DNA of 64,000 nucleotides, from NCBI GenBank assembly GCA_029262815.1, contig JAJCYS010000029.1, forward strand, positions 9,837 through 73,836, written 5' to 3'. Of the stretch, positions 7,234 through 63,800 are shown piece after piece. This stretch comes from Deltaproteobacteria bacterium (GTDB taxonomy: Bacteria; Bdellovibrionota; JAJCYS01). The stretch's first letter is position 1, and the number at the start of each line of letters is the position of its first letter. Both the position numbers and the translations under genes were made by a program. The notes under the pieces are model-generated. The model ran no database searches. It worked only from the letters and a program-made list of their open reading frames with translations, and was not told where the DNA came from.

Positions 7234-7308
7234 GGAGTTCTTAGGGTCTCAGAGCACTTTTTGGCACTTAAGAAGGTGCCAAAAAGTGCTCTGAGACCCT
7301 AAGAACTC
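7234..7308. terminator. Perfect ~33-bp inverted repeat between convergent genes. It could be a bidirectional terminator or a palindromic element.
   Basis: The arm gagttcttagggtctcagagcactttttggcac is followed by loop ttaagaag and then gtgccaaaaagtgctctgagaccctaagaactc. These are perfect complements. The repeat sits between the 3' ends of the 5022..7220 (+) and 7320..9104 (-) genes. Confidence 0.6.
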
Positions 7309-7319
7309 CCAAAACAACT

Positions 7320-9104
7320 TTAGGGTAAATTCTTAACCATTCTCCTAAAATTTTCCAACACAATTCCCTGAAAGGTTGGCCAGGTGGTGTCAGAAAAATC
7401 ATTAAACGTTTTTTCAAAATCTTCATACCCCAAAAAAATGCCTTTATCTTTGAAAGCGTTCAACCCTAGAACACGATCAAAAACGATTTCTGGAACCACA
7501 GATTGAAACTCTACTTCGGTTCGCGGTAACCGATTGTGCATGCTATAAAATCGTTGAACAGCTACTAAAGTGAAATATTTTAGTTTTGTGTGGTGTCCAT
7601 CTCCAGGGCTGTATTTTATTTTTTTATTATTGAGAGGGATGGTATGAAACAAGCTTAATATTTTTGATTTTATTTTGCTGTTATTTTTCTTTTTTAAATT
7701 ACATACATATAATTCATGAAGCAGTGTTTTGCCTTCATAAAAATTCATTTCGTTAAAGAAAGAATTTTCAGACAATAATACATCTGATAGCAGCAATACG
7801 TCACGCATGCCTAAAGCACTTGCATAATCCGACAACGTTTTACTCAAAACAGTTTCATCTATATGCTCAATTGTTTTATGTTCATGAGATACAAAGACTA
7901 ATTCCTTTTTTACTTCTTTGATAAATTTATCCATTACGAGATTCTGCAATGACCCTTTTGATGAACGGAGTCTGAGTTGAGCAAGTCGAAACAAGCGTTT
8001 CCGGCCACTAGCCTTTGATAGATCAAGCTCACTGTCTGGAAAATGGTTACTCTGGTATGCCACTAAGACGTGTTTTGGTAACTCTAAAAATCGATTTTCA
8101 AAGCGTTTACTCTCTATATAATTAAAAAGTTTGACCAGGTTGCTGTCAACCATGACTTCAGGATATAAAAAAGTACCTTGGGTCAATATAAGGTTGTGAT
8201 CAATTTGTAGTGTAACGATACCTGCGTCAGCAACAATCTCACTTGCTTTTAAATGTGCGAGTAGGACCAACTTCATATCTGAAGTGATCTCCTTTGGATC
8301 GATATTTAGGCGAGTTAATAACGCATCATACGTTCTGACATGGTTGCCATAAAACGCATAACGCTTATTTATCTCAAAAGCAGGGTTATTCATAACGTCT
8401 GGATATGTTCCTTCAATGTGAGTTGTGTGAGGTACAAAGCGAGAAACCAGAATGGGTAAACTCATGAGATGTGAATGAATATCTGTTTCCGAGACAGGTA
8501 GACTGTGCTTATCATTTAATAAGCTATGTAATGAAGGATAGCTAATACCCCCTAAATTAGCCTTGTAGTCATTGAGGCGATAGGTTGGCAATCTTGTGTT
8601 AGGCCAATGTGAGGGCGTGATTGTATTCAAGATAGGCACGACATATTCTGGAAAAAGAAGAGAAGCCATGTGCTGGATATGTAGATTAAATTGCGTGTGC
8701 ATAGCTGGGTATGGTCTACCCGAAGTAATCAAAAAATCTGTACTTTGTATGAGCCAACTCACGTTGTAAATATCATCAATGAATGTATCCACATTCATGT
8801 GAAACCCACTAACTGCTAGAAATACGCCGAACTGGTTGTCCCGATAGTGAAATTTTACAACCAAGTCACCATAGGTTTTATGAGGTAAGTGATACAGAAT
8901 TCCCTCATGCCCAATGGAGACGATTTTCATTTTAGTGTTCTCACGTAGTGATGTGCTTACAAGGGTGTGCAACTGCTCTTGATTCAAGGAGGGGATACAT
9001 GCAAAAACACTCTGTAAAATCCCAAATAGGGCAACTATAAAAGGGAATGAAAGTTTCAACCACATGAACTGAGCATATCTATCAAACGGGGCGTTTAAAC
9101 ACAA
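7320..9104 (-). CDS. Hypothetical protein, probably a lipoprotein or secreted protein. The true start may be the internal Met at about 9065.
   Basis: Long ORF. The internal MWLKLSFPFIVALFGILQSVFAC reads as a signal peptide plus lipobox Cys. Confidence 0.5.
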   Translation of the reverse strand: MCLNAPFDRYAQFMWLKLSFPFIVALFGILQSVFACIPSLNQEQLHTLVSTSLRENTKMKIVSIGHEGILYHLPHKTYGDLVVKFHYRDNQFGVFLAVSGFHMNVDTFIDDIYNVSWLIQSTDFLITSGRPYPAMHTQFNLHIQHMASLLFPEYVVPILNTITPSHWPNTRLPTYRLNDYKANLGGISYPSLHSLLNDKHSLPVSETDIHSHLMSLPILVSRFVPHTTHIEGTYPDVMNNPAFEINKRYAFYGNHVRTYDALLTRLNIDPKEITSDMKLVLLAHLKASEIVADAGIVTLQIDHNLILTQGTFLYPEVMVDSNLVKLFNYIESKRFENRFLELPKHVLVAYQSNHFPDSELDLSKASGRKRLFRLAQLRLRSSKGSLQNLVMDKFIKEVKKELVFVSHEHKTIEHIDETVLSKTLSDYASALGMRDVLLLSDVLLSENSFFNEMNFYEGKTLLHELYVCNLKKKNNSKIKSKILSLFHTIPLNNKKIKYSPGDGHHTKLKYFTLVAVQRFYSMHNRLPRTEVEFQSVVPEIVFDRVLGLNAFKDKGIFLGYEDFEKTFNDFSDTTWPTFQGIVLENFRRMVKNLP

Positions 9105-16701: not shown

Positions 16702-18093
16702 ATGAAACGTAGTTACAATACCGTATCAGCATTTTTGCTGCTATCCCTGGCTTTAGGGGGTTGTGCAAAAAAAGGTGCAATTGAGAACAAGCAAAAAAAT
16801 AATCAAATGGCTGCAATTCAGGCCAAGCAGAAACAGCTTGAATCTGAACTGGCGGCAAAAGAACTGAAAGATATCAATTCATATTGGATCGGGCGAACCG
16901 TTTTAATAGCGAAAGTCGTCCAAGGGGAAAACGATGTTACAGAAAAATTTCTTGGACGTTTTAAAGATACGACCCAAAATTCTCCGATAGAAGATCCTGA
17001 GTTTAATTTCAATTCAGAACGTTTTATTGTGAGTGCCATTGTAGATGGTACAAAATCAAAATTTACTTATGATACAAGTGGTGATGGTCCTAATGCTGGA
17101 CGTGTTGTATTGGAAGAAAATGGGAAAATTGTTCTAAAGAAATTTGTATTTAAAATTAAAAATAAGGAATCCGGATCAGTTTTAAGGTATGAAAGTCCAA
17201 GACTTGAATTGAGTCTTTTAGATGAAAAAAATGTCACATACTTGGTGGGTAAAGGCGAAAACGGACTAACCGTATTTTTCGAAGCCAAGGATCCAGATGC
17301 AATTGTAGCTGAAAAAAATGAGGTCATCAAAAAACAAGATGAAGATTTGAGATCTGAAAAAGAAAAATATAGTCGATTTGAAGCTGTAAAAAATCAAGAA
17401 ATTGGTGATCTTAAGTTAAAGTTAGCCAAATTTCAAAATACAACAGTTCCAAAATTAGAAACTCAGTTAAAGAAATTAAATGAAGAGACAGTCCCTGTGC
17501 TAGAAAGTGCAATAGCAACGTACAAGAACACGACAGTGCCGGGATTAGAAAACAAATTGAAAACACTCGAAAAAACAACAGTCCCCGGACTACAGCAAAA
17601 AATTGCAGTGTATAGAGATACGACGGTACCTGGATTGAACACCCAAATAGAGAATCTAGAAAATGCAGCGGGAGAAACAACAAGATTGCAAGGTATCAAA
17701 GATCAAAAACAAGTTATAGCAACGAAGAAATTGAATAATCAGTTAAAGAAATTGAACGAAGAGACAGTGCCAGGATTAGAAAGTAAAATCGCAATGTACA
17801 AGAATACGACAGTGCCGGGATTAGAAAACAAGGTAAGAGAACTTGAAGGAACAACAATCCCTGGATTGCGCCAAGAGGTTACAGTGCTTAAAGAAACGAC
17901 GGTACCCGGATTGGAAAATACGATAGAAACATACAAGACTAAAACGGTACCTGGATTAGAAAACAAAATAGCAACATACAAAAATACAACAGTACCTGGA
18001 TTAAAAAATAGAATTAAAGAACTTGAAAAACAGCTTGAGGGTAAAGAACCTGAAGAAAAGAAAGAAAAAGATGATTCTTCAGATTCTGAATAA
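16702..18093 (+). CDS. Repeat-containing lipoprotein with ~13 copies of a 15-aa unit (TTVPGLENKIxxYKN).
   Basis: Lipobox LGGC in MKRSYNTVSAFLLLSLALGGCAKKG. The in-frame 45-bp tandem repeats encode TTVPGLxxK units in two blocks, and a larger ~280-bp internal duplication (NQLKKLNEETVP.LES.IA.YKNTTVPGLENK) appears twice. Confidence 0.75.
   Translation: MKRSYNTVSAFLLLSLALGGCAKKGAIENKQKNNQMAAIQAKQKQLESELAAKELKDINSYWIGRTVLIAKVVQGENDVTEKFLGRFKDTTQNSPIEDPEFNFNSERFIVSAIVDGTKSKFTYDTSGDGPNAGRVVLEENGKIVLKKFVFKIKNKESGSVLRYESPRLELSLLDEKNVTYLVGKGENGLTVFFEAKDPDAIVAEKNEVIKKQDEDLRSEKEKYSRFEAVKNQEIGDLKLKLAKFQNTTVPKLETQLKKLNEETVPVLESAIATYKNTTVPGLENKLKTLEKTTVPGLQQKIAVYRDTTVPGLNTQIENLENAAGETTRLQGIKDQKQVIATKKLNNQLKKLNEETVPGLESKIAMYKNTTVPGLENKVRELEGTTIPGLRQEVTVLKETTVPGLENTIETYKTKTVPGLENKIATYKNTTVPGLKNRIKELEKQLEGKEPEEKKEKDDSSDSE
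17441..18040 (+). repeat. In-frame 45-bp tandem repeat array inside the lipoprotein gene.
   Basis: Recurring acgacagtgccgggattagaaaac-type units. The protein shows a 15-residue periodicity. Confidence 0.7.
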
Positions 18094-18127: not shown

Positions 18128-18161
18128 CCGTCTGGGTGATATCCACCTAGACGGTTTTTTT
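18128..18161 (+). terminator. Rho-independent terminator.
   Basis: The stem is ccgtctgggtg with a short loop, then cacctagacgg. The stem has one G.U pair and is followed by tttttttg, directly after the lipoprotein stop. Confidence 0.7.
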
Positions 18162-25348: not shown

Positions 25349-25364
25349 CTAGAACCGGTTCTAG
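25349..25364. promoter_or_regulatory. Perfect 16-bp palindrome CTAGAACCGGTTCTAG abutting a TATAAT hexamer upstream of the 25400 gene.
   Basis: Read directly from the sequence. The half-site tagaaccgg is identical to the tips of the family A element TIRs. Confidence 0.5.
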
Positions 25365-30010: not shown

Positions 30011-31006
30011 ATGAAACTAGATCTGAGATACATACTACTGACGGTGATACTTGCGTGTTTTAGCTCCCATGGATTGTCAAATAACTTACCAACAGAGCCT
30101 TCGCAGCCAGGTTCGGCAGATCAAATTGAAAAATCAAATAATCTGCCTGCGGATGAACTGCTGAATGACGAGGGGGGATTTAATTTTTTACCTTATCTTG
30201 TCTCCGGAGGCATTCTAACGCTTATTCTTTCATCCCACTACATTTGGTGGGATGAAGAGCCCGAATCTTTTCATTTTAAAGAATTCCATCCGATGCTAAG
30301 CAGAAGTTCTGATTCGGGGGGCACAGATAAATTTGGCCACATGTGGATGAATTACGTGCTTACTCGACTGGGGTCCAGGCTTATGTACCTCTTGGGTGCT
30401 GACCGTAAAGAAGCCATCATTTTCTCAGGTTTGACCGTTTTTGTAGGGTACACGCTGCTTGAGATTCAAGACGGATATACCGCTCATGGGTTTGATCCAG
30501 GTGATTTTTTGTTCAACAACTTTGGCATGCTGCTGGGTGTCATGAAAGAGATCTTTCCAGAGCTGGATAACTATTTTAGATTTCGAATGGGGTATTTTCC
30601 CAGTCGCCATTTTATTCGTGCTTTACATGCCAATGCGAAATCATGGTCTGATTTTCCTGAAGATTATGCAGGATTAACCTATTATTTTGACTTTATACTG
30701 CCTTTTGTTCCTTTTTTAACGGTTGGTTTACACTGGGTGACCAAAGGATATCAATGGCCAGATGAGGATCCGCCAGTTCCCTTTTCACGAAAAAAAGAGC
30801 GATTTTTAGGGGTTCATGTCGGCATTAATGGGTCTTATTTGATTCGAACATTCATGAATCCACGATTTATATCAACCAAGATCTTCTACTTTTTAGACCA
30901 ATTAATTGCCGTTCCCTTTTCGATGATCGAATTTAAATTTAGTTTAGACGAAAGCTCAAATCGGTTGACCTTCGGAATTAATTCACACATAGTTATCAAA
31001 ATATAA
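30011..31006 (+). CDS. Hypothetical secreted protein.
   Basis: Signal peptide MKLDLRYILLTVILACFSSHGLS. Confidence 0.5.
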   Translation: MKLDLRYILLTVILACFSSHGLSNNLPTEPSQPGSADQIEKSNNLPADELLNDEGGFNFLPYLVSGGILTLILSSHYIWWDEEPESFHFKEFHPMLSRSSDSGGTDKFGHMWMNYVLTRLGSRLMYLLGADRKEAIIFSGLTVFVGYTLLEIQDGYTAHGFDPGDFLFNNFGMLLGVMKEIFPELDNYFRFRMGYFPSRHFIRALHANAKSWSDFPEDYAGLTYYFDFILPFVPFLTVGLHWVTKGYQWPDEDPPVPFSRKKERFLGVHVGINGSYLIRTFMNPRFISTKIFYFLDQLIAVPFSMIEFKFSLDESSNRLTFGINSHIVIKI

Positions 31007-31150
31007 CCTCGTTTATTTATGAGACCGGTTCAAGCTATAATACTGTTGAGTTATTATGGGCAGTATTACATTTCACGCGTTGATATCTAGCCAATTTCCT
31101 AAACAGATGTTATTTTGGGGCGTTTCCGCTATTGAGTTGCTGGAGGCGTT

Positions 31151-34883: not shown

Positions 34884-35079
34884 ACAGCAGCATTAAAACT
34901 AAATCATTGTAATTCATTTGTCAAATTAATTAATTAATTAATGATTAGAAGGAGTTGAATTAAAAAAATTACATCATATTCGATAGATGTGCAAGATTTC
35001 ACGTATGTGGGGTCGGTTTCAGACATTTGCAATTGAATGCTTCTTCTGCCTTCTATATAGTAAATAGTATACAGTGAAT

Positions 35080-35109
35080 GGGTAGGTATGTTGTTCATCA
35101 TACCTACCC
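35080..35109 (+). promoter_or_regulatory. 11-bp perfect hairpin in the 5' UTR of the propeller/CCP gene.
   Basis: The stem is gggtaggtatg, the loop ttgttcat, then catacctaccc. It lies 22 nt upstream of the AAGGAGG Shine-Dalgarno and ATG at 35132. Confidence 0.45.
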
Positions 35110-35131
35110 AAACCCTCACAAGGAGGATCGG

Positions 35132-37705
35132 ATGCCTCGTCGTATTTTTGTTTCCATCGTCGTTATTTTAATGATTGCCATCATGAGGATCTCTGCCTGT
35201 GGCAGTAAATCGTCTTCGCGAAAAGCAGTTCGGAATATTGCCTCTACAGATAATAATAATAACCAAAACCAAAATGGTAAATTGGGAGGCGGCATCCCTG
35301 TTCAATCGGGTGAAGAGGGTGATATAAAAGAAGGCCGATACCCCAGTCAATGCGGCAATATCCAAATATCGGATGATGACAAATATCTTTTTGTCGTTAA
35401 CAAAACCAAAAGCGGTGAGTATAAAGAGGACGCGCCTGGATCCTTGTCTGTTTTTCGTGTAAGTGAAAAAGGAAAGGATGATAACTCTCTTGTAGAAGAA
35501 GTCGGTGTCGGTGAAGATCCGTACAGTGTTTCGGTCTTACCTAACAAAAGTCGTGCGTACGTTACCAACGGAGCCGACAACAATGTCAGTGTGATTGATC
35601 TCAGAACCTCTAAAGAAATCAAAAAAATTCCAGTCGGTTCTGAACCTCGATGTTCTGCGTTGTCTCCGAGTGGAAAAATGTTGTATGTTTCCAATCATTC
35701 GGATGGAACCGTTTCTGTCATCGACACGGGTAGTACGCGCGTAATTAAAACCATCGATCTTCAACTAAATCAAGTCAGAATCAAAAATCCCTACGCCCTG
35801 AGTGTGACAAATAATAAAGACGAAAGTGATGCAGATGAAAAAGTATATGTAGCTGATTTTTATGCTCGAGGCCGAGCTTCCGTACCCATCGATCAACGAG
35901 AAGCAACCGACAATGGAAAAGAAGCGCGTATTGCAGTCATCGAGGCAAGTCAAAACAGTATGGCCCGTATTATCATGCTTAGCCCATTACCTGGTAATGT
36001 GGTTGGATTCCCAGGAGATCGGTCAAAATTTTCTGTACAAGGGTCAGAGCACCCGATTTTTAAAGCAAAAGGGGCCGACCCCACTAAGGAACTCCAAGGG
36101 GCGTTTTTTAACCAACTGTATCATTTTGCACTCGATCCTGAGTCAGACATGATGTACGTACCAGCCATTGGAGCCGCACCCGCGCCACCCGTAAAATTTA
36201 ATGTAAATATCCAGGCCCTTGTGGGGGTTGTAGATACTGCCAGTGATCAAGAAATCACCTCACTGCATCGCAATCTCAATAATTTAATTAAAGTTGAAAA
36301 AGATCCAGAACCCCCGTTTATTCCAGATAATGCTGCACGACTCGATCGCGCATTTATGGCTGATACGATAGCCTTGGCTATCCGAAAAGGCACAGCCCTA
36401 TTTGTCAGTCGTGGGGGGAGTTATGTCTTGCGAGCTGCTATCGGGAATGATGGCAGCATGAAATTAGAACAAAATAGCCGAGGTGCGGGTATTCGATTAG
36501 CCGTCGGCAATATTCCGACCGGCATTGTCATGAATAGCTCAGGAACACGGGCTTATATAAACGCCGAAGTGTCACAAACCGTTACGACACTTGATCTTGA
36601 GAAAAATGATGTCATGAGTACGTTTAGGAGTGCCGATTTACCTCCACCTGGATCGGAAGCGCATATGATCCTAATTGGAAAGTTAGCCTTTTTTACGGGT
36701 ATGGGCTTATCTCCCGAAAATTTAGTGAAAGCTGACGTCAGAAAGATTGATACCCACACGTTTCGAAATTTAGCATCCAACCATAACTGGAGTTCCTGCG
36801 CATCCTGTCATCCTGGCGGGTTAGCCGACGGTGTGACCTGGTTGTTTCCGACGGGACCTCGTCAGACGCCAGCGCTTGATGGCACGTTTGCCCTGAAGGA
36901 TCCCAATGATCAACGGGTACTCAATTGGAATGCAGTACGGGGTAGTGTGACGGATTTTAATAACAACGCCAGAAATATCCAAGGTGGGTTTGGATTTTCA
37001 ATTGATGCCGCACGGAAAGTTCAAATACCGGGTAACGACAAAGGCAGTGTGGAAGATGCAAAGATTGTTGAAAATCATGGCCCTGACCATAAAACAAAAT
37101 TTGGAAACCGAACGGGTTATTCTGATTCATTAAACCTGATGACCCTCTGGGTCCAGAAAGGCATTCGGACACCTAATCGTCCCTCAACCCTAAATGCACA
37201 ACTAGTAAACGCCGGTCGCGGGTTATTTAAAGTACATTGTGCGTCTTGTCATGGAGGCGCTAAATGGACTTCATCTCAAATTCAATGGACCAATCCAATT
37301 CGTAAGGGTGGGCAGCCGCTACCACCTGAAGCTGACAAGGTTCAGTTTATAAAACCAGAGCTACCGGTCATTGTGAAATTCGTCGGTGGTGTTCAATCAA
37401 CCGATATTATTATGAACATTGGAACATTGGATCTCACTAATGTAATCGAGTTTAGAGGTGCAGGGAAAGGTATTGGAAAACGATCTGTGCCACCGCCAGG
37501 ATCTTTTAACTCACCGTCCCTTTTGGGTGTGGCAAGCACGGGCCCGTATGGTCATCACGGTCGAGCCAAATCGTTGATTGATGTATTTCGAGCGAGAACG
37601 CCACAAGGGGGATTGGGTCACCCAGCTTTTGGATTGAGTGGGAATCAATTATCCGCTGTTGTGGAGTTTATTAGGGCCATTGACGAGAAAGAACCACCGC
37701 TTTAA
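35132..37705 (+). CDS. Lipoprotein fusing a YVTN beta-propeller to a C-terminal di-haem cytochrome c peroxidase (CCP/MauG-like) domain.
   Basis: Lipobox ISAC. YVTNGADNNVSVIDL...LYVSNHSDGTVSVIDT are YVTN repeats. Two CXXCH motifs (SCASCHPGG and HCASCHGGAKW). The C-terminal NSPSLLGVASTGPYGHHGRA matches the CCP PSLRNV..T.PYFHDG motif. The start is set at the Met with a perfect Shine-Dalgarno, not the ORF-track start at 35078. Confidence 0.75.
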   Translation: MPRRIFVSIVVILMIAIMRISACGSKSSSRKAVRNIASTDNNNNQNQNGKLGGGIPVQSGEEGDIKEGRYPSQCGNIQISDDDKYLFVVNKTKSGEYKEDAPGSLSVFRVSEKGKDDNSLVEEVGVGEDPYSVSVLPNKSRAYVTNGADNNVSVIDLRTSKEIKKIPVGSEPRCSALSPSGKMLYVSNHSDGTVSVIDTGSTRVIKTIDLQLNQVRIKNPYALSVTNNKDESDADEKVYVADFYARGRASVPIDQREATDNGKEARIAVIEASQNSMARIIMLSPLPGNVVGFPGDRSKFSVQGSEHPIFKAKGADPTKELQGAFFNQLYHFALDPESDMMYVPAIGAAPAPPVKFNVNIQALVGVVDTASDQEITSLHRNLNNLIKVEKDPEPPFIPDNAARLDRAFMADTIALAIRKGTALFVSRGGSYVLRAAIGNDGSMKLEQNSRGAGIRLAVGNIPTGIVMNSSGTRAYINAEVSQTVTTLDLEKNDVMSTFRSADLPPPGSEAHMILIGKLAFFTGMGLSPENLVKADVRKIDTHTFRNLASNHNWSSCASCHPGGLADGVTWLFPTGPRQTPALDGTFALKDPNDQRVLNWNAVRGSVTDFNNNARNIQGGFGFSIDAARKVQIPGNDKGSVEDAKIVENHGPDHKTKFGNRTGYSDSLNLMTLWVQKGIRTPNRPSTLNAQLVNAGRGLFKVHCASCHGGAKWTSSQIQWTNPIRKGGQPLPPEADKVQFIKPELPVIVKFVGGVQSTDIIMNIGTLDLTNVIEFRGAGKGIGKRSVPPPGSFNSPSLLGVASTGPYGHHGRAKSLIDVFRARTPQGGLGHPAFGLSGNQLSAVVEFIRAIDEKEPPL

Positions 37706-39660: not shown

Positions 39661-42192
39661 TTAAGGGATTAAAAAAGGCTCATGTGCGTCTATAGACTTC
39701 AGAAATTCCACAACAGCTGAAACCTCACTCAAATCCATTTTAAAAAGTGGGTGCTCTAGGCCACCGTCGGTCTTGAGTTTAAACACATCTTCAAGCATCT
39801 GAGCTCGACCGTGATGGCCGTAGGGGCCTGTGGTAGCCGCCCCTAATAAGCTCGGGCTATTGAAAGACCCACCCGCACCTACGGAAGCTGTTCCAATGGC
39901 ACCACCCGCACCTCGAATTTCGATGGGGTTGGTGAGATCTAACGTTGCAGTTCCCACATTGGTGTGAATGATCGTATCTCCATTAAATGAAACTAGTGGT
40001 CCATTGGTGGCTGCAACGAGAAAGACAACGCCTGTGATACTTGCCGCTGGAGTAGATGAACCTCCAAAGAATAAGGGCAGGGGATAGTCAATCCTTGAAT
40101 CTGTCCATTGTTCACCGCCATGACAGGCGACACAGGCCTCTGCCGAATTATCGTTCGCTCCGTTGATATCCGTTGTTCGGGTAAATGTTTTACGTCCCAT
40201 GGCAACCAGGTGGGGTTTTAACCCCGAGGGCCGATTGTAGGTTCGAACCCCTTTTTGAACCCACAGGGTCATTTTGTTTAATGCTTCAGAGACGCCTTTA
40301 ATATTTGAGTCGCTCGTTGGATTTCGTCCCAGAAAATTATTGATAACCGTTTGTTCATTCGCACCATGGTTGCCGACTAACCCCGTATCCGATGGACCAG
40401 CGTTGGGATCATTGGCTGGATCCTGTGCAAAAACTTGAGCATCGGCTGTGAATCCAAAGCCCCCTTGCACGTTGCGTGCATTGTTATTGAAATCGGTCAC
40501 ACTACTTCGAACTGCATTCCAGTTAAACACGCGTTGGTCAATTGCACCGCCATACGAAGAAAAAGAGCCGTCCAAAGGTATGGTCTGTCTGGGGCCAGTG
40601 GGAAACAACCATGTGACGCCATCAGCCAAGCCATTGGGATGGCAAGACGCACAAGAGCTCCAGTTGTTATCTGAGGCCATGTTTCGAAAGTTTGCGGTTA
40701 CGATATTTCGTACATCTGCGTTGTCGGCAACTTCTGCTGGGATCCCAAATCCAGTGAAGAACGCAAGTTCTCCAATGAGAATCATGTGTGCTTCGGTGCC
40801 AGGCGCAGGTAGGTCTGCGGTTGCAAAGTTCGAACCAATAACCGAATTAGTTTCTAAATTTATACACGTGACATTTTGGGAGACTTTGTTGTTCACATAA
40901 GCACGTGTACCGCCTGAGTTTAAAACGACCCCGTTTGGAATACTCCCAACTGTGAATTTCGTAATAATAGTGTTGGTGACTTCAAAATCAAGTTCACCAT
41001 CTGTGATGGCACCTTTGGCAACGAAACTACCGGATCGAGATACAGCAATTGCGACATCATTCCGGACTGCAATTGCCACAAAATCACCAAAGAAGGCTTT
41101 CTCTAATCCACCTAGCACAGTGCGATTGGGTTCTGTTTTGACGGACTCATTTAGGTTTGCGCGTGAAACCACTTCGCCATTGAATAAGGTAGCCAGTAGT
41201 GCCTGAATATTCACATTAAACTTGACGGGCGGTGAAGGTCCCGCGCCGATTGAGGGCACGTAGAGCCGCCCATTGTAATATCCCAGATGTCCCAATTGGT
41301 TGAAGTAAGCCCCTTGTGGTACAGCGGCAGGGTCTGTGCCACTCGGTGCTTCAAAAACTGTGCTCCCAAAGGCTGAGCGGTCTCCATTAAATCCCACATT
41401 ATCGATGGGAGCTAGGCGCACGATACTCGAAATAGCAGTTGTCTCTAAGGACACAATACCAACACGACCTTCTTTGCCGTTATCAAACCCTTCAATCGCA
41501 TCAACACCTAATCCGGGTCGAGGACGCGCGAAAAAGTCCGTCACATATAGGGATTCATCAAAATCTTCGTCATTGCCATTATTGGTGAGGGCGAGGCTGT
41601 ATGGATTGTAAATGCGCGTGGGGCCATGGGTTGGATCTTGAAAGATGAGCTCACAAGTTTTAATTAAAATATTGTTCACCGTGTCGATGATCGATACCGT
41701 GCCGTCCGAAAAATTAGCGACAAACAGCAGATTGCCAGATGGGGAAAGGGCGGTACCCCGAGGTTCAGATCCCACCATGATGGTTGTCAGGACTGTATTG
41801 TTTGATAGATCAATCACGGAAACAGTGTTGTCGGCTCCATTACTGACGTAGGCTCGGGTTCCTGCAGCGTTAACTGAAACACTGTAAGGGTCTCGTCCAA
41901 CTTCTATCTCAGCTAGTTTTGTTTTGCTGTCAGACTCACCGTTTAGAACCTGTACGACCGTTAAGGATCCTTTATGAACATAAGGGGTTGCGGTTTTAGC
42001 TGCTTCAGTGGAGGAAATCTTGTTGATCACGTAGATTCGTGTGTTGTCATTTGAAATTTGTATAGTGCTGCTTAAAGAAGCCAAGATGGCCGCGACAACG
42101 GCCTCATCATCTTTATTGTTACAGGCATAAAAAGTCGTGGCAACACCCATCACAAACGTCAAAAACAAACTAACAACGAGATTCCTTCTCAT
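39661..42192 (-). CDS. Paralogous lipoprotein with the same YVTN beta-propeller plus di-haem CCP-like architecture.
   Basis: YVSNGADNTVSVIDL, then CASCHPNGLADGVTWLFPTGPRQT, then CVACHGGEQW, then NSPSLLGAATTGPYGHHGRA. Same architecture and many shared residues with the 35132..37705 gene. Lipobox YAC. Confidence 0.75.
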   Translation of the reverse strand: MRRNLVVSLFLTFVMGVATTFYACNNKDDEAVVAAILASLSSTIQISNDNTRIYVINKISSTEAAKTATPYVHKGSLTVVQVLNGESDSKTKLAEIEVGRDPYSVSVNAAGTRAYVSNGADNTVSVIDLSNNTVLTTIMVGSEPRGTALSPSGNLLFVANFSDGTVSIIDTVNNILIKTCELIFQDPTHGPTRIYNPYSLALTNNGNDEDFDESLYVTDFFARPRPGLGVDAIEGFDNGKEGRVGIVSLETTAISSIVRLAPIDNVGFNGDRSAFGSTVFEAPSGTDPAAVPQGAYFNQLGHLGYYNGRLYVPSIGAGPSPPVKFNVNIQALLATLFNGEVVSRANLNESVKTEPNRTVLGGLEKAFFGDFVAIAVRNDVAIAVSRSGSFVAKGAITDGELDFEVTNTIITKFTVGSIPNGVVLNSGGTRAYVNNKVSQNVTCINLETNSVIGSNFATADLPAPGTEAHMILIGELAFFTGFGIPAEVADNADVRNIVTANFRNMASDNNWSSCASCHPNGLADGVTWLFPTGPRQTIPLDGSFSSYGGAIDQRVFNWNAVRSSVTDFNNNARNVQGGFGFTADAQVFAQDPANDPNAGPSDTGLVGNHGANEQTVINNFLGRNPTSDSNIKGVSEALNKMTLWVQKGVRTYNRPSGLKPHLVAMGRKTFTRTTDINGANDNSAEACVACHGGEQWTDSRIDYPLPLFFGGSSTPAASITGVVFLVAATNGPLVSFNGDTIIHTNVGTATLDLTNPIEIRGAGGAIGTASVGAGGSFNSPSLLGAATTGPYGHHGRAQMLEDVFKLKTDGGLEHPLFKMDLSEVSAVVEFLKSIDAHEPFLIP

Positions 42193-42269
42193 ATCTTCCC
42201 CCCGGTTCTAGATCATTAAATCGAACAGGGGTTCAATTTACAATCTTGACTTTTTGAATTTGAAGTTAT

Positions 42270-42455
42270 TTAGGGCGTGTCCTCATTAGGGATTCGTTAT
42301 GAGGAAATGGAGATTTTGATTCGAAACGAGGAGGTTGAGTGAAAAAACCGCAGGTGTAGTAGCGCTACATCGAGGATTCTTTCATGAAAATCGACGAAGT
42401 TGTAGGCCAAAAGATCTATTCCACAGTAGAATCTCTAATGAGGACACGCCCTAGC
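42270..42455 (+). mobile_element. MITE-like element, family B, copy 1 (~185 bp with ~25-bp terminal inverted repeats).
   Basis: The termini tagggcgtgtcctcattagggattcg and gaatctctaatgaggacacgccctag are inverted repeats. The whole element recurs reverse-complemented at 62675..62850. Confidence 0.75.
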
Positions 42456-42987
42456 TGAATTTGGGTTTGAAAGACAAAGTCATCCCGATGAGTACAGCAT
42501 TATTAAAGACTTGTGCCCCAAGCCCCAAACGAAATCCATTTTCAATATGGTAGTACAAGCAGAGTTCAGTCGATGCGAGGTTGAACCCTTGGCTAAAGAC
42601 ATACGTGAGGCCAGTCTGGGCGGTTAGGATTAAATAACGGAGTAAAAACCAATCAAATCCGATAAGGGTGTGTATTGAGAAAAGATACTGACTAGCGTTA
42701 CCAAAGATACTCGCCCCCGATGCGACGAATCCCTGAAACATACGGCCCGTTGTATGGAATTTTAACGAAAGGGGGACGGTACCTCCATAGAGATCAACTG
42801 CTTCGAAATTAGTAGCTATGAAAAGCTCTGGCTTTGCTGAAAAAGATAACCATTTTTGAATGGGCACGACAATTTCAATTTCGGGATTGACCATGCCAAG
42901 GACACTAAAAGAGGGCTCTTCAGCAGTGGCCAGCTGAGCTGTTGTGAACCCTAAAAGTAAGATGGATAAAAAGAAAAAATTTTTCAT
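42451..42987 (-). CDS. Small outer-membrane beta-barrel-like protein.
   Basis: Signal peptide MKNFFFLSILLLGFTTAQLATA. Small (178 aa) with beta-strand-like alternation. Its stop codon TAG is the terminal trinucleotide of the family B element. Confidence 0.5.
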   Translation of the reverse strand: MKNFFFLSILLLGFTTAQLATAEEPSFSVLGMVNPEIEIVVPIQKWLSFSAKPELFIATNFEAVDLYGGTVPLSLKFHTTGRMFQGFVASGASIFGNASQYLFSIHTLIGFDWFLLRYLILTAQTGLTYVFSQGFNLASTELCLYYHIENGFRLGLGAQVFNNAVLIGMTLSFKPKFS

Positions 42988-43117: not shown

Positions 43118-43684
43118 TTAAATCTGTGGTGCCCAGGTAAATGCAACCATAGCCAAAGTTCCTCTAGGTCCAATTTGCGCATCAACACCGACTCTTAATT
43201 CCTCTGTGAGTTTATAATATACATCCAGAGATAATCCAGGAAAGAGTACCGCAACAGAGTCCAAAATCCCGACATACCAAAGCCCTGTCTCAGCTTTAAG
43301 ACCAAAGTGACTGTTGATATCCCAAGAAACACCAATGAGGGTTTGACCCACAAAGCTAAATGCGTTGTTTTTGTATATAGGTGTGCCGCCCACTTTAATG
43401 TAAGGGGTAATTTTTTCTAAGCTCCAAAACGCCTTGAGTGCAATAGGTAGGTTAACAACGGGTCCAACACGACTAAAGTCAGTGACCAAACCCAGGCTTG
43501 GCTCTACGGTGACGCCTAACCAACTATTAAATTTTACGTCAATTTCAATTTCTGCTTTACCACCACTAATAAACGCATAATCTGCAGCAAGGCTGTCTTT
43601 GCTTGTCAATGAAACTGTGCCTAACACAGCCACTAGACCCAATAAACCAATTCCTTTAATTATTTTTTTCATACATTCCTCCAC
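43118..43684 (-). CDS. Small outer-membrane beta-barrel-like protein, paralogue of the upstream gene.
   Basis: Signal peptide. Similar size and pattern (GLGAQVFN versus GVDAQIGP regions). Confidence 0.5.
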   Translation of the reverse strand: MEECMKKIIKGIGLLGLVAVLGTVSLTSKDSLAADYAFISGGKAEIEIDVKFNSWLGVTVEPSLGLVTDFSRVGPVVNLPIALKAFWSLEKITPYIKVGGTPIYKNNAFSFVGQTLIGVSWDINSHFGLKAETGLWYVGILDSVAVLFPGLSLDVYYKLTEELRVGVDAQIGPRGTLAMVAFTWAPQI

Positions 43685-45748: not shown

Positions 45749-45778
45749 GCGACCTCTTTTTCAGGACTCTTTTTTTTA

Positions 45779-45955
45779 GAACCGGACTCGTAAATAACTT
45801 CGTAAAGAGATCAAGCGAAATCTGTAGCCTCAAGGCCGCAGGTGAAAAATGCTCGGAGGTGGCCACATTGGCCATCGAGAACATTTTTTACCGAGAACGA
45901 CGAGGCTGGGCAGATTGCAGCTGATCGGAATAGAGGTTATTTATGAGTCCGGTTT
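45779..45955 (+). mobile_element. MITE-like element, family A, copy 1 (~177 bp with 19-20-bp terminal inverted repeats).
   Basis: gaaccggactcgtaaataac pairs with gttatttatgagtccggttt. It is about 94% identical to 63619..63800. It carries the internal palindrome ggccacattggcc. Confidence 0.8.
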
Positions 45956-46933
45956 AAGTTCTTTGAGCTTCATTTCCCAACGATACGCGTGGCTAACGAT
46001 CTCACTTAAGTTGTCGAACTGGGGCTTCCAACCGAGAACGGCTTTAATTTTGTCGCATACTGCAATCAACTGCTCTGCGTCACCAGCACGTCGGCCAGCT
46101 TCTTTGACCGTAAAGGCTACACCCGAAGCACGCTGTACTTCCTCAATAACTTCTTTGACACTATATCCATGACCGTACCCAACATTAAGCAGCGTGGATT
46201 CACCGCCATTTTCCAGATACGTGAGTGCATCAAGATGTGCCCGAGATAAATCTTCAATATGGATATAGTCTCGAATTGCTGTTCGATCAGGCGTATTGTA
46301 ATCCGTTCCATAAATTTCCATGTGAGACCGCTGTCCCGTAGCAGTTTCGCATGCAACTTTGATGAGATGGGTGGCATTTCGGGTGCGTTGGCCCATGCGA
46401 CACTCTGGATCAGCCCCTGCTACATTAAAATATCTCAGGGCAACATATTTTAGGGGATGTGCTTTTACGATATCTTCTAACATCATTTCAGTTAGCAATT
46501 TCGATTGTCCGTAAGGGTTCAAGGGGGCAGGTGAAGACAACTCATCAGCTTGACCACTTACGGGTGATCCATAAATTGCTGCTGTACTTGAAAAAATAAA
46601 TCGATGAACATTGTTTGCAAGGCACGTCTCAACCAATCCCAACGTATTACAGGTATTGTTTCTAAAATATTTTATGGGGTGGGTGACAGATTCACTAACG
46701 GTTTGAAAGGCAGCGAAATGAAGTACAGCATCAAACTGCTCCGCTTGAAATAATGCATCAAGTTTTTCTAGATCTGCTAAATCAATTGAAACCAATTTCT
46801 CGTCATAAATAAGGGCGTCTCCGTAGCCGGCCTTCAGGTTATCGAGTACGACAACCGTATGTCCTGCTTCGGACAACTGTCGTGTGACATGACTGCCAAT
46901 GTAGCCTGCGCCGCCTGTAACCAATAATTTCAT
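45941..46933 (-). CDS. galE: UDP-glucose 4-epimerase.
   Basis: MKLLVTGGAGYIGSHVTRQL, then YGQSKLLTEMML (YxxxK). The ORF-track N-terminal extension to 47056 is rejected. The last 4 codons and the stop lie inside the family A TIR. Confidence 0.85.
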   Translation of the reverse strand: MKLLVTGGAGYIGSHVTRQLSEAGHTVVVLDNLKAGYGDALIYDEKLVSIDLADLEKLDALFQAEQFDAVLHFAAFQTVSESVTHPIKYFRNNTCNTLGLVETCLANNVHRFIFSSTAAIYGSPVSGQADELSSPAPLNPYGQSKLLTEMMLEDIVKAHPLKYVALRYFNVAGADPECRMGQRTRNATHLIKVACETATGQRSHMEIYGTDYNTPDRTAIRDYIHIEDLSRAHLDALTYLENGGESTLLNVGYGHGYSVKEVIEEVQRASGVAFTVKEAGRRAGDAEQLIAVCDKIKAVLGWKPQFDNLSEIVSHAYRWEMKLKELKPDS

Positions 46934-47019
46934 ATGATCTTCCCTATAATTCCATCTGTGGTCATAAGTATATGCGTTTATACCTGTTTCGTCACTTTGG
47001 GCCAGATCTTTAGGGTCGT

Positions 47020-48297
47020 ATGATTGACATGCTACTTCTGTGTATGCTACAAACAAGCCCCATGGGACAATTTAAATGTTATTTATTTTATATCTCGGTG
47101 TTAACCTTAGGTACCGCTGAATATGCTCAAAGCTGCTCTGTCGAGGATCTTAAACAAAAATTAATCCAAGCAAGTGGGGAACAAACGTTAAAAAAACGGA
47201 TTGTGACTGCAGATCAAACAAATATTGAACAGTGGGGACTCAGGGTTGCTGCTTATGAAGAAACTCTAAGAATGTCTGGTTTTAGATATGATATGCAGTT
47301 AGAAATGCTGATGACACAAGATCCATTTACGCGTGCATTCTTTCATGAATCACAAGACGCATTCTCAAGTAAAACTTTTTATGCAATTCAGGACGAAATT
47401 AAGATGTTAAAAAAACGATGGGCGGCATATGACCAAGTCATGCAAAATAGATTTTCATCTCAAGTTGTAAAAGATTTTTTCAGAAATGGCAACGGTTTTT
47501 CACGCGAACTCATGAATCGTATTGCACAAAATGCTCATCTCGATGTCACACTGGATCGATTACTTATGATGCGTGACCAAGTCGAGGCAGTGCATGGTGA
47601 AACCCAAGCAAAATATGATGTTCCTGAACCTCGCAGTAAACAAGAACATACGAATTTGCGGATGGGGGATAAGATTGCAATCAAGGGGACGCCAACCTTT
47701 GAGGGGATGACAACCTTTTATCTAGATATTGTGATGGTTATGGATGTTATTCGTGCACATATGATCAACAATCAAAAATCGATGGATCAACCGTTTGATG
47801 GCCCTCTATTCGATGGCCAAGGGTTTGAAGGATCCACCCTTGTTGGATTAGGATCTGGATACCCCAGAATGGGTGTTTTCTTAGGGCTTAGTTATCCTAA
47901 TCTCGAATACAATGGATATGAGATCGCACCTGAACGTGTTCAAGTCAGTCAGCAAGTTGTGCGTAATTTAGAACTAACGAACGTACACTATGAAGAGCGG
48001 AATTTAAATCGAACAGGATCTTTGCCTGAAGATGGTAATATTTATTTTATCTATGATTCGTTTGGAATTAATACACGAGATTTTGTAATTGATGAATTAC
48101 AAAAACTTGGACAGAAAAAATCGTTTTATCTGGTTGTTGTCGACGGCTACACTTACGATCTAAGAATTCGGTTGCCGAAGGAAAAATGGCTTAATCGTAT
48201 CTACTTAGGATACAGTCGGGGACCCTATGGAAATCCCATACAGTATGGTCCTGATACTGCTGAACAGGTTTCTATTTTTTACGTACATAAAAAATGA
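47020..48297 (+). CDS. Hypothetical protein with a methyltransferase-like C-terminal motif. Start uncertain.
   Basis: Long ORF. TLVGLGSGYPRMGVFLGLSYPNLEYNGYEIAPE resembles MTase motif I followed by an acidic strand end. Confidence 0.45.
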   Translation: MIDMLLLCMLQTSPMGQFKCYLFYISVLTLGTAEYAQSCSVEDLKQKLIQASGEQTLKKRIVTADQTNIEQWGLRVAAYEETLRMSGFRYDMQLEMLMTQDPFTRAFFHESQDAFSSKTFYAIQDEIKMLKKRWAAYDQVMQNRFSSQVVKDFFRNGNGFSRELMNRIAQNAHLDVTLDRLLMMRDQVEAVHGETQAKYDVPEPRSKQEHTNLRMGDKIAIKGTPTFEGMTTFYLDIVMVMDVIRAHMINNQKSMDQPFDGPLFDGQGFEGSTLVGLGSGYPRMGVFLGLSYPNLEYNGYEIAPERVQVSQQVVRNLELTNVHYEERNLNRTGSLPEDGNIYFIYDSFGINTRDFVIDELQKLGQKKSFYLVVVDGYTYDLRIRLPKEKWLNRIYLGYSRGPYGNPIQYGPDTAEQVSIFYVHKK

Positions 48298-60413: not shown

Positions 60414-62573
60414 TTAGAGCCACAGACTGGCTAGTGAGAAGGTTGCCCATGCACTGACGTAAGCAAGAAGGGTCATGCCGCTAAAGACGCTCACAGGTAA
60501 TACCCAGGAATTGGCTTCACGTCGAAGCACGGCTAATGTAGACATGCACTGCATAGCAAATGCAAAAAACACAAGCAGGCTTAACACCGTGGGGATGGTG
60601 TAAATTGGATTGCCGTCAGCCCAGGTATCTGAATGCATGGCCGATCGCAGGGAGTGCGATTCTTCATCTACATCTCCTAAGCTGTAAATCGTGCCAAGTG
60701 TCCCGATGATCACTTCACGTGCTGCGAAAGCACTGATGAGGCCTATTCCAATTTTCCAATCAAACCCCAGGGGCTTGATTACAGGCTCAATCACAGTACC
60801 GAGTTGTCCTAGATAACTGCTCTTTAACAAAGTGCCTTGGATAGTTGCCTCAGACGCACCTTGCGTAATGAGTGTGTGCTTCAGTGGTTCGTTGCGTGGG
60901 AATGTACCTAAAAACCAAAGCACCATTGAGCAGACAAGAATGACTTTCCCCGCTTTGAATATAAATACTTTGGATCGGAGTTTTAAAACCATACCCAAAG
61001 TTTTTAAACTGGGACGTCGGTATAATGGCATAGGCACAGCCGGTGGTTTTGGGTAGGTTGGATTCGGTAAAATATGTTTCAGGCAAAATGAAAGTGCCAG
61101 CGCGCCGACAATGCCCAGTACATAAAGACTGAAGAACAAAAGGCCCTGAAGATTCAAAAACCCAAACACAGTGATACCCGGAATAAAAGTTGCAATCAGA
61201 AGTGCATACACGGGGAGTCGTGCACTGCAGGTCATCATCGGGGATAAGATCATCGTGATGAGTCGGACTCTGTTATTAGAAATGTGCCGTGTAGCCATGA
61301 TGCCTGGTATCGCACATGCAAACGATGAAAGTAATGGAATAAAGGATTGGCCGGACAGCCCAACACGCTGAAAAAATCGATTCACAAGTGCTGATGCCCT
61401 GGGTAAATAACCTGAGTCTTCTAACACGGTGATGAAAGCAAACAAGATTAGGATTTGGGGCAAGAAGACAAGAAAATTGCCAATACCCCCTATGACTCCA
61501 GAGTGGATAAAACTTCTGAGCAGTCCCTCTGGGATTAGGTACGTGACAGCAGCCTGTACATGACCCATGAGAAACTCAACGCCTTCCATGAGAGGTGCTG
61601 CCCACGTATAAACAGACTGAAACATGAACGCCATGATGCCTAGAAACACTAGAGTGCCATAAATAGGATGCATCAACCATCGGTCAATCGCAGCCGTTCG
61701 ATCATGTGCTGAACGTGTATTGCTCTGGGTCTGTTTTAAGACTTTTGTTTTTGTTTGCTCGGCCCAATGAACGTGTGCCGCATTGATATCTTGCCACTGT
61801 ACTTTTTTGACTTCATCTTCAAGCGCATCCAGGTTAAGTACTTTTAAAGAAAAGGGAAACCGACTTGCATTGAGCGTCCCACACTGACCCAACTCTTCAA
61901 TGACACGTTTGGCCCAGTAGGTCGCATGTTGTGCAACTGTTTCGGGGGTTTGGCGCGCTATGGCTTGAGCCGTTTTTTGAATGAGGTTTTGGAGAGTGGG
62001 TTCGAAGTTAGGATTATAACAAGGCTTTAAGTAGTATCCTTTTTCATCAACTAGATTTTTAAGTAAATCACTAAGTCCATGTTTTTTCGTAGCCACGGTA
62101 CCCACAACGGGTACGCCTAAATGAGAAGCAAGATGCTCAAGATCGACGCTCTGTCCTGATGCGTGAACTGTATCTAACATATTGACAACAACAATGACAG
62201 GCATGTGGATGTCACGAAATTGTGATAGTAAGTACAGTCCGTCTTCTAAGCAGCTGCCATCGAGTATGAGTAATACGGTCTCGGGTGTGCCGCACTGAGA
62301 CATGCCAAACAGATAATTCGTTGCGATCATTTCGTCTACACTGCTGGGTGAAAAACTGCGAAGCCCAGGTAAATCGACAATGACGAAATGGCCGTCTGGT
62401 GTTTTGAGATGCCCCTCGAATTTTTCTACGGTTACACCTGGGAAATTAGTGGCTTTTTGCCTAGCTCCCGTGAGCGCGTTAAATAAGGTGCTTTTGCCAG
62501 CATTTGGTCTGCCCGCTAAAGCCACAATTCGTGGGTTCGGTTCATTAATTTTTTGTGTTTCGTTTCTCATCAA
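60414..62573 (-). CDS. feoB: Ferrous iron transporter FeoB.
   Basis: The N-terminal G-domain VALAGRPNAGKSTLFNALTG...DLPG, followed by a polytopic membrane domain. Confidence 0.85.
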   Translation of the reverse strand: MMRNETQKINEPNPRIVALAGRPNAGKSTLFNALTGARQKATNFPGVTVEKFEGHLKTPDGHFVIVDLPGLRSFSPSSVDEMIATNYLFGMSQCGTPETVLLILDGSCLEDGLYLLSQFRDIHMPVIVVVNMLDTVHASGQSVDLEHLASHLGVPVVGTVATKKHGLSDLLKNLVDEKGYYLKPCYNPNFEPTLQNLIQKTAQAIARQTPETVAQHATYWAKRVIEELGQCGTLNASRFPFSLKVLNLDALEDEVKKVQWQDINAAHVHWAEQTKTKVLKQTQSNTRSAHDRTAAIDRWLMHPIYGTLVFLGIMAFMFQSVYTWAAPLMEGVEFLMGHVQAAVTYLIPEGLLRSFIHSGVIGGIGNFLVFLPQILILFAFITVLEDSGYLPRASALVNRFFQRVGLSGQSFIPLLSSFACAIPGIMATRHISNNRVRLITMILSPMMTCSARLPVYALLIATFIPGITVFGFLNLQGLLFFSLYVLGIVGALALSFCLKHILPNPTYPKPPAVPMPLYRRPSLKTLGMVLKLRSKVFIFKAGKVILVCSMVLWFLGTFPRNEPLKHTLITQGASEATIQGTLLKSSYLGQLGTVIEPVIKPLGFDWKIGIGLISAFAAREVIIGTLGTIYSLGDVDEESHSLRSAMHSDTWADGNPIYTIPTVLSLLVFFAFAMQCMSTLAVLRREANSWVLPVSVFSGMTLLAYVSAWATFSLASLWL

Positions 62574-62674
62574 ATTAGTACGTAACAGGGACGGCTTTTA
62601 TTAGGATTAAATTACGACATTTTTTTACGTGTTTAAAGAACTTTTTTGCTTTTACATGGGAGGATACTAAGACG

Positions 62675-62850
62675 AGTTCTCACGAGGGATTCTACTGCGG
62701 AATAGATCTTTTGGCCAACGACTTCGTCGATTTTCATGAAAAAATCCTCGATGTAGCGCTACTACACCTGCGGTTTCTCCACTCAATCTCCTCGTTTCGG
62801 CTCAAAATCTCAATTTCCTCGCAACGAATCCCTTATGAGGACACGTCCTA
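62675..62850 (-). mobile_element. MITE-like element, family B, copy 2 (reverse orientation, left TIR partly degenerate).
   Basis: Reverse-complement alignment to 42270..42455 along its whole length, for example cgattttcatgaaa(a/g)aatcctcgatgtagcgctactacacctgcggttt. It lies in the divergent region between feoB and the 62926 ORF. Confidence 0.7.
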
Positions 62851-62925
62851 AAAAAGAGGGGGTAGATACTCAAACTTTTGAAAAGAGTACTGGTTTTTGA
62901 ATCAGGGCCTTGTTAGGTTTGGGGC

Positions 62926-63633
62926 ATGTTATCTCCTGAATTGTTGCTACCACACTATTTACCTTCTTTACGGACTTCGCCCACGGATCGCCTGGTATTG
63001 GGGTTTAGCTATGAGCAATCAAAGGCGTTGAACAGCCTCAAAAAGTGGGGGCAGGTGGACCCAATTGCCTACCGTCGCCCCGTAAGTCTCTACCATGTTC
63101 GACCCAATACGGATGAGTACGCTCCACTTCTAGTCGGATTCATGCATGGATTCGGGTTTCAAACGCTTTGGGTCTTATTGTCTGAGTTTCAGGCTTGGGG
63201 CATACGGTCGGTTGTTCTGACAGGGTTTGGAGGGCACACATTCAAGGCGCCTAAGGGTCAAGGATATTGGATTTCAAAGGCTTATAAACAAATTTCAAAC
63301 ACAGAAATTTCATCCGATGCAGTCAAACCTCAAACGCCTGTTACAAAACATCCTTTGGGTCGTGCTGAAGTCTCATGCGTCTCAACCTTTTCACCTTATG
63401 AATCTCAGTTGGATTTATCTCCGGTTATCGATATTGAGTATATAGTCGATATGGAAGTGGCATGGTTTTTTGAGCGATGTAATGCATTATCGTTGGCCTG
63501 CGGGGCAGTTCTCAGGGCATATGATTTTCTAGGGAGCCGTGCATATAAACCGAATGTGCACACGCCTCTTGATGTAAAAAATGATTTAGAACATTTACTA
63601 CATCAAATGATGACACTAGAACCGGTCTCATAA
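62926..63633 (+). CDS. Nucleoside phosphorylase-superfamily-like protein (possibly MTA/futalosine nucleosidase-like).
   Basis: VVLTGFGG and VDMEVAWFFERC resemble the PNP_UDP_1 glycine-rich and (E)ME(x)AA motifs. The last four codons and the stop lie in the family A TIR. Confidence 0.4.
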   Translation: MLSPELLLPHYLPSLRTSPTDRLVLGFSYEQSKALNSLKKWGQVDPIAYRRPVSLYHVRPNTDEYAPLLVGFMHGFGFQTLWVLLSEFQAWGIRSVVLTGFGGHTFKAPKGQGYWISKAYKQISNTEISSDAVKPQTPVTKHPLGRAEVSCVSTFSPYESQLDLSPVIDIEYIVDMEVAWFFERCNALSLACGAVLRAYDFLGSRAYKPNVHTPLDVKNDLEHLLHQMMTLEPVS

Positions 63634-63800
63634 ATAACTTCGTAATGAGATCGAGCGAAATCTGTAGCCTCAAGGCCGCAGGTGAAAAATGCTCGGAGGT
63701 GGCCTCATTGGCCACCCGAGAACATTTTTTACCGAGAACGACGAGGCTGGGCAGATTGCAGCTGATCGGAATAGAAGTTATTTATGAGACCGGTTCTAAC
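63619..63800 (+). mobile_element. MITE-like element, family A, copy 2 (~182 bp with perfect 20-bp TIRs).
   Basis: gaaccggtctcataaataac pairs with gttatttatgagaccggttc. About 94% identical to 45779..45955. Confidence 0.8.

Follow-up and report, generated by a model that had tools for sequence, protein, structure and literature searches.

A TA-flanked, non-coding inverted-repeat element of MITE-like design in a poorly sampled bacterial lineage

Genes and features at the locus

The window (the whole stretch of DNA analysed, 64,000 nt) carries between ORF 39661..42192 and ORF 42451..42987 a short palindromic element, which we call element B. ORFs 42451..42987 and 43118..43684 are tandem paralogues that match no Pfam or NCBIfam family; the label OMP, retained here as OMP-like, was given by an earlier, sequence-only reading. 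ORF 39661..42192, referred to as the CCP-like gene, encodes a beta-propeller protein that matches cytochrome-D1 and lactonase families weakly, and has a paralogue at 35078..37705 (49% identical). A second, inverted copy of the element is flanked by feoB on the minus strand (60414..62573, at a distance of 94 nt) and by ORF 62926..63633 on the plus strand (at a distance of 75 nt). The features referred to in the text are as follows.

42271..42453, plus strand: element B copy 1, complete, 183 bp including TA at each end
42271..42295, plus strand: copy 1 left terminus, TA (42271-42272) followed by the 23-nt TIR GGGCGTGTCCTCATTAGGGATTC
42429..42453, minus strand: copy 1 right terminus, 23-nt TIR (42429-42451) followed by TA (42452-42453)
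42344..42378, plus strand: central core, with an 8-bp hairpin GGTGTAGTAGCGCTACATC (42353-42371) nested in a second stem
42253..42262, plus strand: left member of the copy 1 direct repeat, TTTGAATTTG, 8 nt outside the left TA
42454-42463: right member of the copy 1 direct repeat, GCTGAATTTG, abutting the right TA
42451..42453, minus strand: TAG stop of the OMP-like ORF 42451..42987, with T and A from the flanking TA and G as the last base of the element
62668..62850, minus strand: inverted copy 2 of element B, sharing 88.6% identity with copy 1
62658..62667, plus strand: copy 2 direct repeat, GGGAGGATAC, abutting the degraded end
62860-62869: partner of the copy 2 direct repeat, GGGTAGATAC, 9 nt outside the other TA
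62689..62718, minus strand: sigma-70-like motif TTGGCC-18-TAGAAT in copy 2, a consensus match only

Of the ORFs in the window that encode at least 120 aa, about half lack a Pfam family. Seven window proteins were looked up in a collection of 15 billion proteins, where six are the sole members of their clusters and one is absent. Together, these observations indicate that the lineage is very poorly sampled. For the CCP-like protein and MurJ, both of conserved length, the nearest homologues are only 46–49% identical, so no relative is close enough for a comparison with an empty site. The loci of distant homologues (L026–L029) contain neither element B nor the second family, A, described below. 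The methyltransferase–MurJ pair at 18160-20765 is syntenic with two of these loci, L026 and L027 (~46% amino acid identity), and L026 also carries DotA, IcmW and NttA of a Dot/Icm type IV secretion system; this synteny is the single clue to the affinity of the host.

Other repeats were observed in the window. At 7234-7309, between the convergent ORFs 5022..7220 (plus strand) and 7320..9104 (minus strand), two perfectly matching 34-nt inverted arms enclose a loop of 8 nt. ORF 16702..18093, for which no family scores above the curated cut-off, contains at 17423-18011 in-frame repeats with a 45-nt period (six or more units, 64–86% identical) and a 276-nt higher-order repeat.

Boundaries, termini and coding capacity of element B

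Copy 1 has the layout TA-GGGCGTGTCCTCATTAGGGATTC ... GAATCTCTAATGAGGACACGCCC-TA. The sequence-only reading had placed an element of ~185 bp at 42270-42455; the element is there, but its real span is 42271-42453 (183 bp), and the final gc of the longer interval belongs to the flank. The arms (42271-42295 and 42429-42453) are each 25 nt long, as the earlier figure of ~25 bp for the TIRs had it, complementary at 24 of 25 positions and separated by 133 nt. By our own estimate, an inverted repeat of this quality (24/25 within 200 nt) would be expected ~1e-6 times per 64 kb. A degenerate pattern of the TIR occurs four times in the window, two per copy, against 0.12 occurrences expected from shuffles.

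The element is non-coding. Its longest ORF has 39 aa and a TTG start, the ORFs present are all non-ATG, and stops occur in all three frames no more than 36 nt from either end; the earlier statement that it has no ORF thus stands in the sense that none exceeds 39 aa. The six-frame translation of the element has no homologue at E<=1 among 5.8 billion proteins. An open 60-aa frame of copy 2, searched exhaustively with HMMER against 1.84 billion representatives, matched two proteins (P0185 and P0186), which were rejected, the DNA showing no similarity to B. P0185 is an ORF spanning a 198-nt tandem repeat of contig L025, and its score derives from four weak repeats of DVALLHLRF; P0186 we take, judging from its repeated sequence, to be an LRR-type repeat protein. 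The tandem repeat of L025 (6232-7108, 4.4 copies, 97% identical) adjoins a Roc-COR-CHAT gene as well as a cluster of RVT_1 + HRDC + FGE-sulfatase with the look of a diversity-generating retroelement, and is unrelated to B. The GC content of element B is 44–46% as compared to 41% for the window, and its size of 183 bp falls in the generic range of bacterial MITEs (about 70–400 bp).

The second copy and database searches

The two copies lie ~20 kb apart in opposite orientation and are identical at 163 of 184 positions (88.6%, BLAST E=3e-65). On both sides the similarity breaks off at most a few bases from the termini, and the flanks are unrelated. A reverse-oriented copy had been proposed at 62675..62850; the inverted copy is real, but starts at 62668. 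One of its ends, at 62826-62850, retains an intact TIR; the other, at 62668-62692, is degraded, with 7 of 25 positions differing from copy 1 and an arm complementarity of 20/25. All four ends of the two copies carry TA. Within the 64-kb window, element B is present in these two dispersed copies.

The TIR pattern was scanned for in 185,579 species genomes, a collection to which the window's own genome does not belong; 20 single matches in unrelated taxa were obtained, which we estimate to be chance level. The best extended match, L018 (22/23), is located inside a long ORF running off its contig, has no partner repeat and was rejected as chance; from our own reading of the frame, the ORF is presumably caspase-like. 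The element found nothing by blastn among plasmids and phages, and neither the B core nor the B TIR was matched in the viral contigs scanned. No IS with B termini was found among the species genomes and viral contigs scanned, and the window ORFs of 120 aa or more contain no transposase domain. A Logan contig (SRR15505518) with the same OMP locus ends 44 nt into element B; assemblers break at repeats, which would explain this end.

Insertion site and neighbouring genes

The last three bases of copy 1, cta, were said to be the TAG stop of ORF 42451..42987, and the complement of 42451-42453 is indeed that stop. The minus-strand junctions of copy 1 read ...AAATTCAGC-TA-[element]-TA-AATAACTTC... 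Removing copy 1 together with one TA gives AGC-TAA in the reconstruction, with a stop at the same codon of the OMP gene. The C-terminus of the paralogous OMP (43118..43684) lies one residue earlier than that of 42451..42987 in the alignment; an end within one residue favours an ancestral stop at this position. The ends of copy 1 would thus fit insertion into a TA with duplication of the TA. The TA at the ends could instead belong to the TIR, without any duplication. The end of the paralogue argues against this, as the ancestral OMP-like protein would then be ten codons longer.

From the ATG of ORF 39661..42192, the beginning of the element is 78 nt upstream, exactly the spacing noted before. 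That this places it inside the promoter region of the CCP-like gene, as was also proposed, is an assumption; neither the element nor the 78-nt spacer gave a sigma-70-like site directed at the CCP-like gene in a consensus scan. With the element removed, 77 nt would separate the ATG of the CCP-like gene from the OMP stop, a gap that makes co-transcription of the two genes plausible. Copy 1 puts a hairpin with a 25-bp stem between them. In copy 2, the sigma-70-like motif TTGGCC-18-TAGAAT is directed outwards through the degraded end, in the direction of feoB, which starts at 62573 at a distance of 94 nt. Copy 1 has TAGGCC at the equivalent −35 position, where the promoter scan reports nothing. 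The central hairpin of copy 2 is followed by a T-run and is terminator-like, as a pattern match only.

A second family of the same architecture

Family A is represented by elements at 45777-45956 and 63617-63798 of the form TA-GAACCGG...CCGGTTC-TA, which are 95% identical to each other. Like B, they consist of TA and a 23-nt TIR at the ends of ~180 bp, form a hairpin over their whole length and overlap the 3′ ends or stop codons of genes. The bodies of A and B show no significant similarity and have only the 9-mer CCGCAGGTG in common (E=0.65); family A is palindromic throughout (67–73% identity to its own reverse complement), whereas B is so mainly in its TIRs. The termini align at 13 of 23 positions with the common sequence GT(C)CTCAT.A...TTC. 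In 20,000 shuffles, 38 score as well, as do 0.7–1.4% of the TA-preceded 23-mers of the window. The description of B as unrelated to family A therefore holds for the dissimilar bodies but not entirely for the ends, which are weakly alike (p about 0.01) and share one architecture. From this resemblance, the two families plausibly answer to related transposases.

The stops of an epimerase gene (45941..47056, minus strand) and of ORF 62926..63633 (plus strand) are located ~17 nt inside an A TIR, so that the final codons of both genes, and their stops, come from A. At 31013-31036, directly after ORF 30011..31006, there is a single terminus of family A (22–24 nt, 91–100% identical) with no partner arm. 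At about 25350-25363, the 14-nt palindrome TAGAACCGGTTCTA corresponds to the outer bases of both A termini fused together and could be a remnant of internal deletion or excision of family A; by our estimate, a specific 14-mer such as TAGAACCGGTTCTA is not expected by chance in 64 kb.

Hairpin, central core and displaced repeats

Element B is predicted to fold over its whole length as one long hairpin. For 42271-42455, the calculated energies are −83.6 kcal/mol (z=−10.9) for the plus strand and −63.9 kcal/mol (z=−7.9) for the minus strand. In both copies, the element's own plus strand has a minimum free energy ~19 kcal/mol better than that of its complement, yet the G.T and A.C mismatches between the arms are balanced (4:3 and 7:6). 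The strand asymmetry of the fold is thus not robust and does not support a strand-specific RNA structure.

The central hairpin carries the sequence GTAG inside its stem. A metagenome scan with a 20-mer from the core matched only L022 and L023, freshwater metagenome contigs (32–35% GC) with tandem paralogous genes of one organism. The core matches these contigs at 34 of 35 nt in copy 1 and at 35 of 36 nt in copy 2, and nhmmer aligned element positions 66-129 (64 nt) to them with E=8e-9. Both contigs are devoid of the B TIRs. There (L022 160-360 and L023 790-990), the core is situated inside the conserved 5′ part of the two paralogous ORFs, upstream of a weak metallopeptidase match and in a local GC bump; it is flanked by a 9-nt inverted repeat, AGACAAGGC/GCCTTGTCT, and may represent a palindrome inserted in frame, as with the RPE of Rickettsia. 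As the core is found without TIRs in an unrelated organism, the body of B may have an independent origin. Between copies 1 and 2, one difference falls in element positions 75-130 and 20 fall elsewhere. The probability of such low divergence is 0.005 for this window, which was chosen post hoc, 0.05 for an independently defined window and 0.21 for the longest identical run; these values weakly suggest that the core is less diverged than the rest of the element.

Each copy is accompanied by 10-nt direct repeats of unique sequence, with 8 of 10 matches and the same geometry: one member abuts a TA and the other is displaced. The 8–9-nt spacer between the left repeat and the left TA is T-rich and identical at 4 of 8 positions between the copies. 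The statistic was designed after copy 1 had been seen, and we regard copy 1 as hypothesis-generating; copy 2 replicates the displaced repeat at p ~0.002–0.004 relative to all TA sites of the window. In family A, there is one weak case (7/10) and one negative. The displaced repeat counts against a simple TA duplication, which does not predict it. It is not a canonical target duplication, and may reflect chance, the target context or a real asymmetric end, which two copies cannot distinguish.

Comparison with known elements

Bacterial MITEs are shorter than 200 bp, have TIRs and 5′-TA-3′ termini, encode no protein and give stem-loop transcripts; most insert into TA with TA duplication (PMC2229807). 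Element B agrees with this published definition (PMC2229807), which supports its assignment as a MITE. The Correia elements of Neisseria (CREE/NEMIS) resemble B in size (about 100–200 bp), TIRs of ~24–26 bp, TA at both ends and lack of coding capacity (PMC2229807; PMC10969869; PMC2649163). Correia elements also share with B long hairpin transcripts (predicted for B), overlap with or adjacency to gene ends, possible outward sigma-70-like motifs and no known cognate transposase (PMC2229807; PMC10969869; PMC2649163). The IHF-binding consensus of some Correia subtypes, WATCAANNNNTTR, is absent from both strands of both B copies with one mismatch allowed. Correia elements number more than 100 copies as compared to the two known for B and belong to another host lineage, and the comparison is one of descriptions, not of sequences. 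They can affect the expression of neighbouring genes (PMC10969869). RUP of Streptococcus pneumoniae and Nezha of cyanobacteria are MITEs mobilised by IS630 and, like B, small, non-coding and bounded by TIRs, with stops in all frames and a presumed TA target or duplication (PMC2229807). The TIRs of RUP match IS630-Spn1, whereas no matching IS for B was found in the sequences scanned; B is 183 bp long as compared to 107 bp for RUP, and its perfect TIRs are much longer.

QMITE2 of Coxiella burnetii (150–190 bp) has TIRs, unique direct repeats of 7–11 nt and, in its centre, a GTAG REP known on its own from other bacteria (PMC5896051). In common with B, it combines TIRs with a central GTAG palindrome that occurs alone in unrelated bacteria, a resemblance by description only, and it is often located at the 3′ ends of genes, which it overlaps by a few bases (PMC5896051). 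Unlike QMITE2, B has TA at all ends, its direct repeats are imperfect and displaced on one side, and no IS1111-like insertions were seen. GTAG REP/BIME sequences are 20–40-nt palindromes with a GTAG tag at one end, high copy number and an associated Y1 transposase (PMC3733652). In B, by contrast, the GTAG is within the stem, the unit is 183 bp with 25-nt TIRs, and the window contains no Y1 transposase.

Discussion

Element B has long TIRs, TA at its four ends and no coding capacity, and occurs in two dispersed copies. Of the earlier description as MITE-like, the size, the TIRs, the TA ends, the non-coding nature, the dispersed copies and the hairpin bear it out; the missing counterpart is a transposase in the window. 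We consider element B likely to be a non-autonomous cut-and-paste DNA transposon, a TA-flanked, non-coding bacterial MITE. The data fit a TA-duplicating non-autonomous transposon of the Correia/RUP/Nezha type. A second family of the same architecture, including a solo terminus, fits a genome that hosts active elements of the TA type. The presence of only two copies, the lack of a transposase in the window and a sequence that is not A+T-rich count against a MITE.

Most of the remaining probability falls to a composite, hairpin-centred element of the Coxiella QMITE2 or REP-derived kind, in which a portable central palindrome would have acquired long TIRs, with variable target duplications of 8–10 bp, an asymmetric tail of 8–9 nt and a mover other than a TA-specific DDE enzyme, for example of the HUH/Y1 type (RAYT/TIRYT-like). 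The core that is identical at 35 of 36 nt in L022/L023 without TIRs, the GTAG within the central hairpin and the displaced 10-nt repeats at both copies (8/10 each, same geometry) would all be accounted for; QMITE2 has a comparable design of TIRs and GTAG REP (PMC5896051), and families of TIRs tied to tyrosine transposases exist (PMC3733652). Against this, the direct repeats do not abut the left TIR, and the 8–9-nt spacer, with 4 of 8 positions identical between the copies, is unlikely to be part of the element. The GTAG is in the stem with no external tag, the window contains no Y1/RAYT gene, the repeat statistic was devised after copy 1 had been seen, and the likeness to QMITE2 is one of description, not sequence. 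We regard a composite of this type as unlikely. The more specific proposal that B, and perhaps A, is built around a portable hairpin module of 35–64 nt that moves between unrelated bacteria, with the asymmetric 8–9-nt tail and a variable ~10-bp duplication, seems improbable to us as well.

Two further explanations are of a different nature. A structured RNA gene or a cis-acting RNA or DNA signal (an sRNA, a terminator or insulator, or an RNase III site) in two copies, with the apparent TIRs as its basal stem, would agree with the very stable predicted folds, the ~19 kcal/mol advantage of the plus strand in both copies, the core as the most conserved part of the element, and the terminator-like hairpin and T-run of copy 2. 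All 11 changed pairs in the two-sequence consensus fold are still paired, one of them by a double change (5/179, G-C to A-U); covariation cannot, however, rest on two sequences, and RNAalifold left three broken TIR pairs of copy 2 unpaired. The balanced mismatches between the arms also speak against an RNA, as does the orientation of the copies, which is opposite with respect to their neighbours: one copy runs antisense to the genes on either side, while the other lies upstream of feoB in the sense direction. A promoter of the element's own was not found in the scans. Rfam gives no match in the window at the gathering score and, in E-value mode, only the miRNA model MIR8562, a spurious long-hairpin hit that scores 21 bits where 211 bits are required. 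An RNA or signal of this kind appears very unlikely. A palindromic intergenic segment that was copied once by recombination or gene conversion and is not mobile, or the last two fragments of a decayed larger IS, would be consistent with the two known copies, the decayed terminus of one of them, the window without a transposase and the public collections searched without a relative. At both loci, though, the similarity is lost in either direction at most a few bases from where the TIRs end; ends that coincide with a 25-nt inverted repeat and TA are unexpected from a segmental duplication, and a second family of the same design is nearby. Such an origin is to our mind highly improbable.

As a MITE, element B would be moved by a transposase encoded elsewhere, which would bind the 23-nt TIRs, cut out the body of 179 bp and place it in a new TA, duplicating that dinucleotide. 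Copy 1, whose ends are still near-perfect, would have entered the TA of the TAA stop of the OMP-like gene, with the stop regenerated as TAG and the protein unchanged, and would have lengthened the gap to the CCP-like gene downstream by ~180 nt of DNA able to form a hairpin. Copy 2, which has lost one terminus and is located in the divergent intergenic region of feoB and ORF 62926, is probably an immobile fossil. The sequence itself shows the anatomy, the two dispersed copies, the TA at the four ends and the lack of coding capacity; we infer the TA duplication, the mobilisation in trans, the class of the transposase (IS630/Tc1-like, or without a known class, as for Correia) and any effects on neighbouring genes.

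Element B is an ordinary kind of element in a poorly sampled bacterial lineage. Nothing but its shared core and its displaced repeats could point to more than an ordinary MITE; were the portable-module proposal true, it would imply an undescribed route of mobilisation, or a QMITE2-like class far more widespread than known. Elements of this kind can alter the expression of neighbouring genes, here the OMP/CCP-like pair and feoB. Insertion exactly in a stop codon, with the stop regenerated, would be an example of harmless settling at gene ends. B and A would, once confirmed, be the first families of repeats to be described from this lineage, for whose proteins the public data hold no close relatives, and such families would explain assembly breaks, as in the Logan contig that ends inside the element, and could serve as markers for strain typing.
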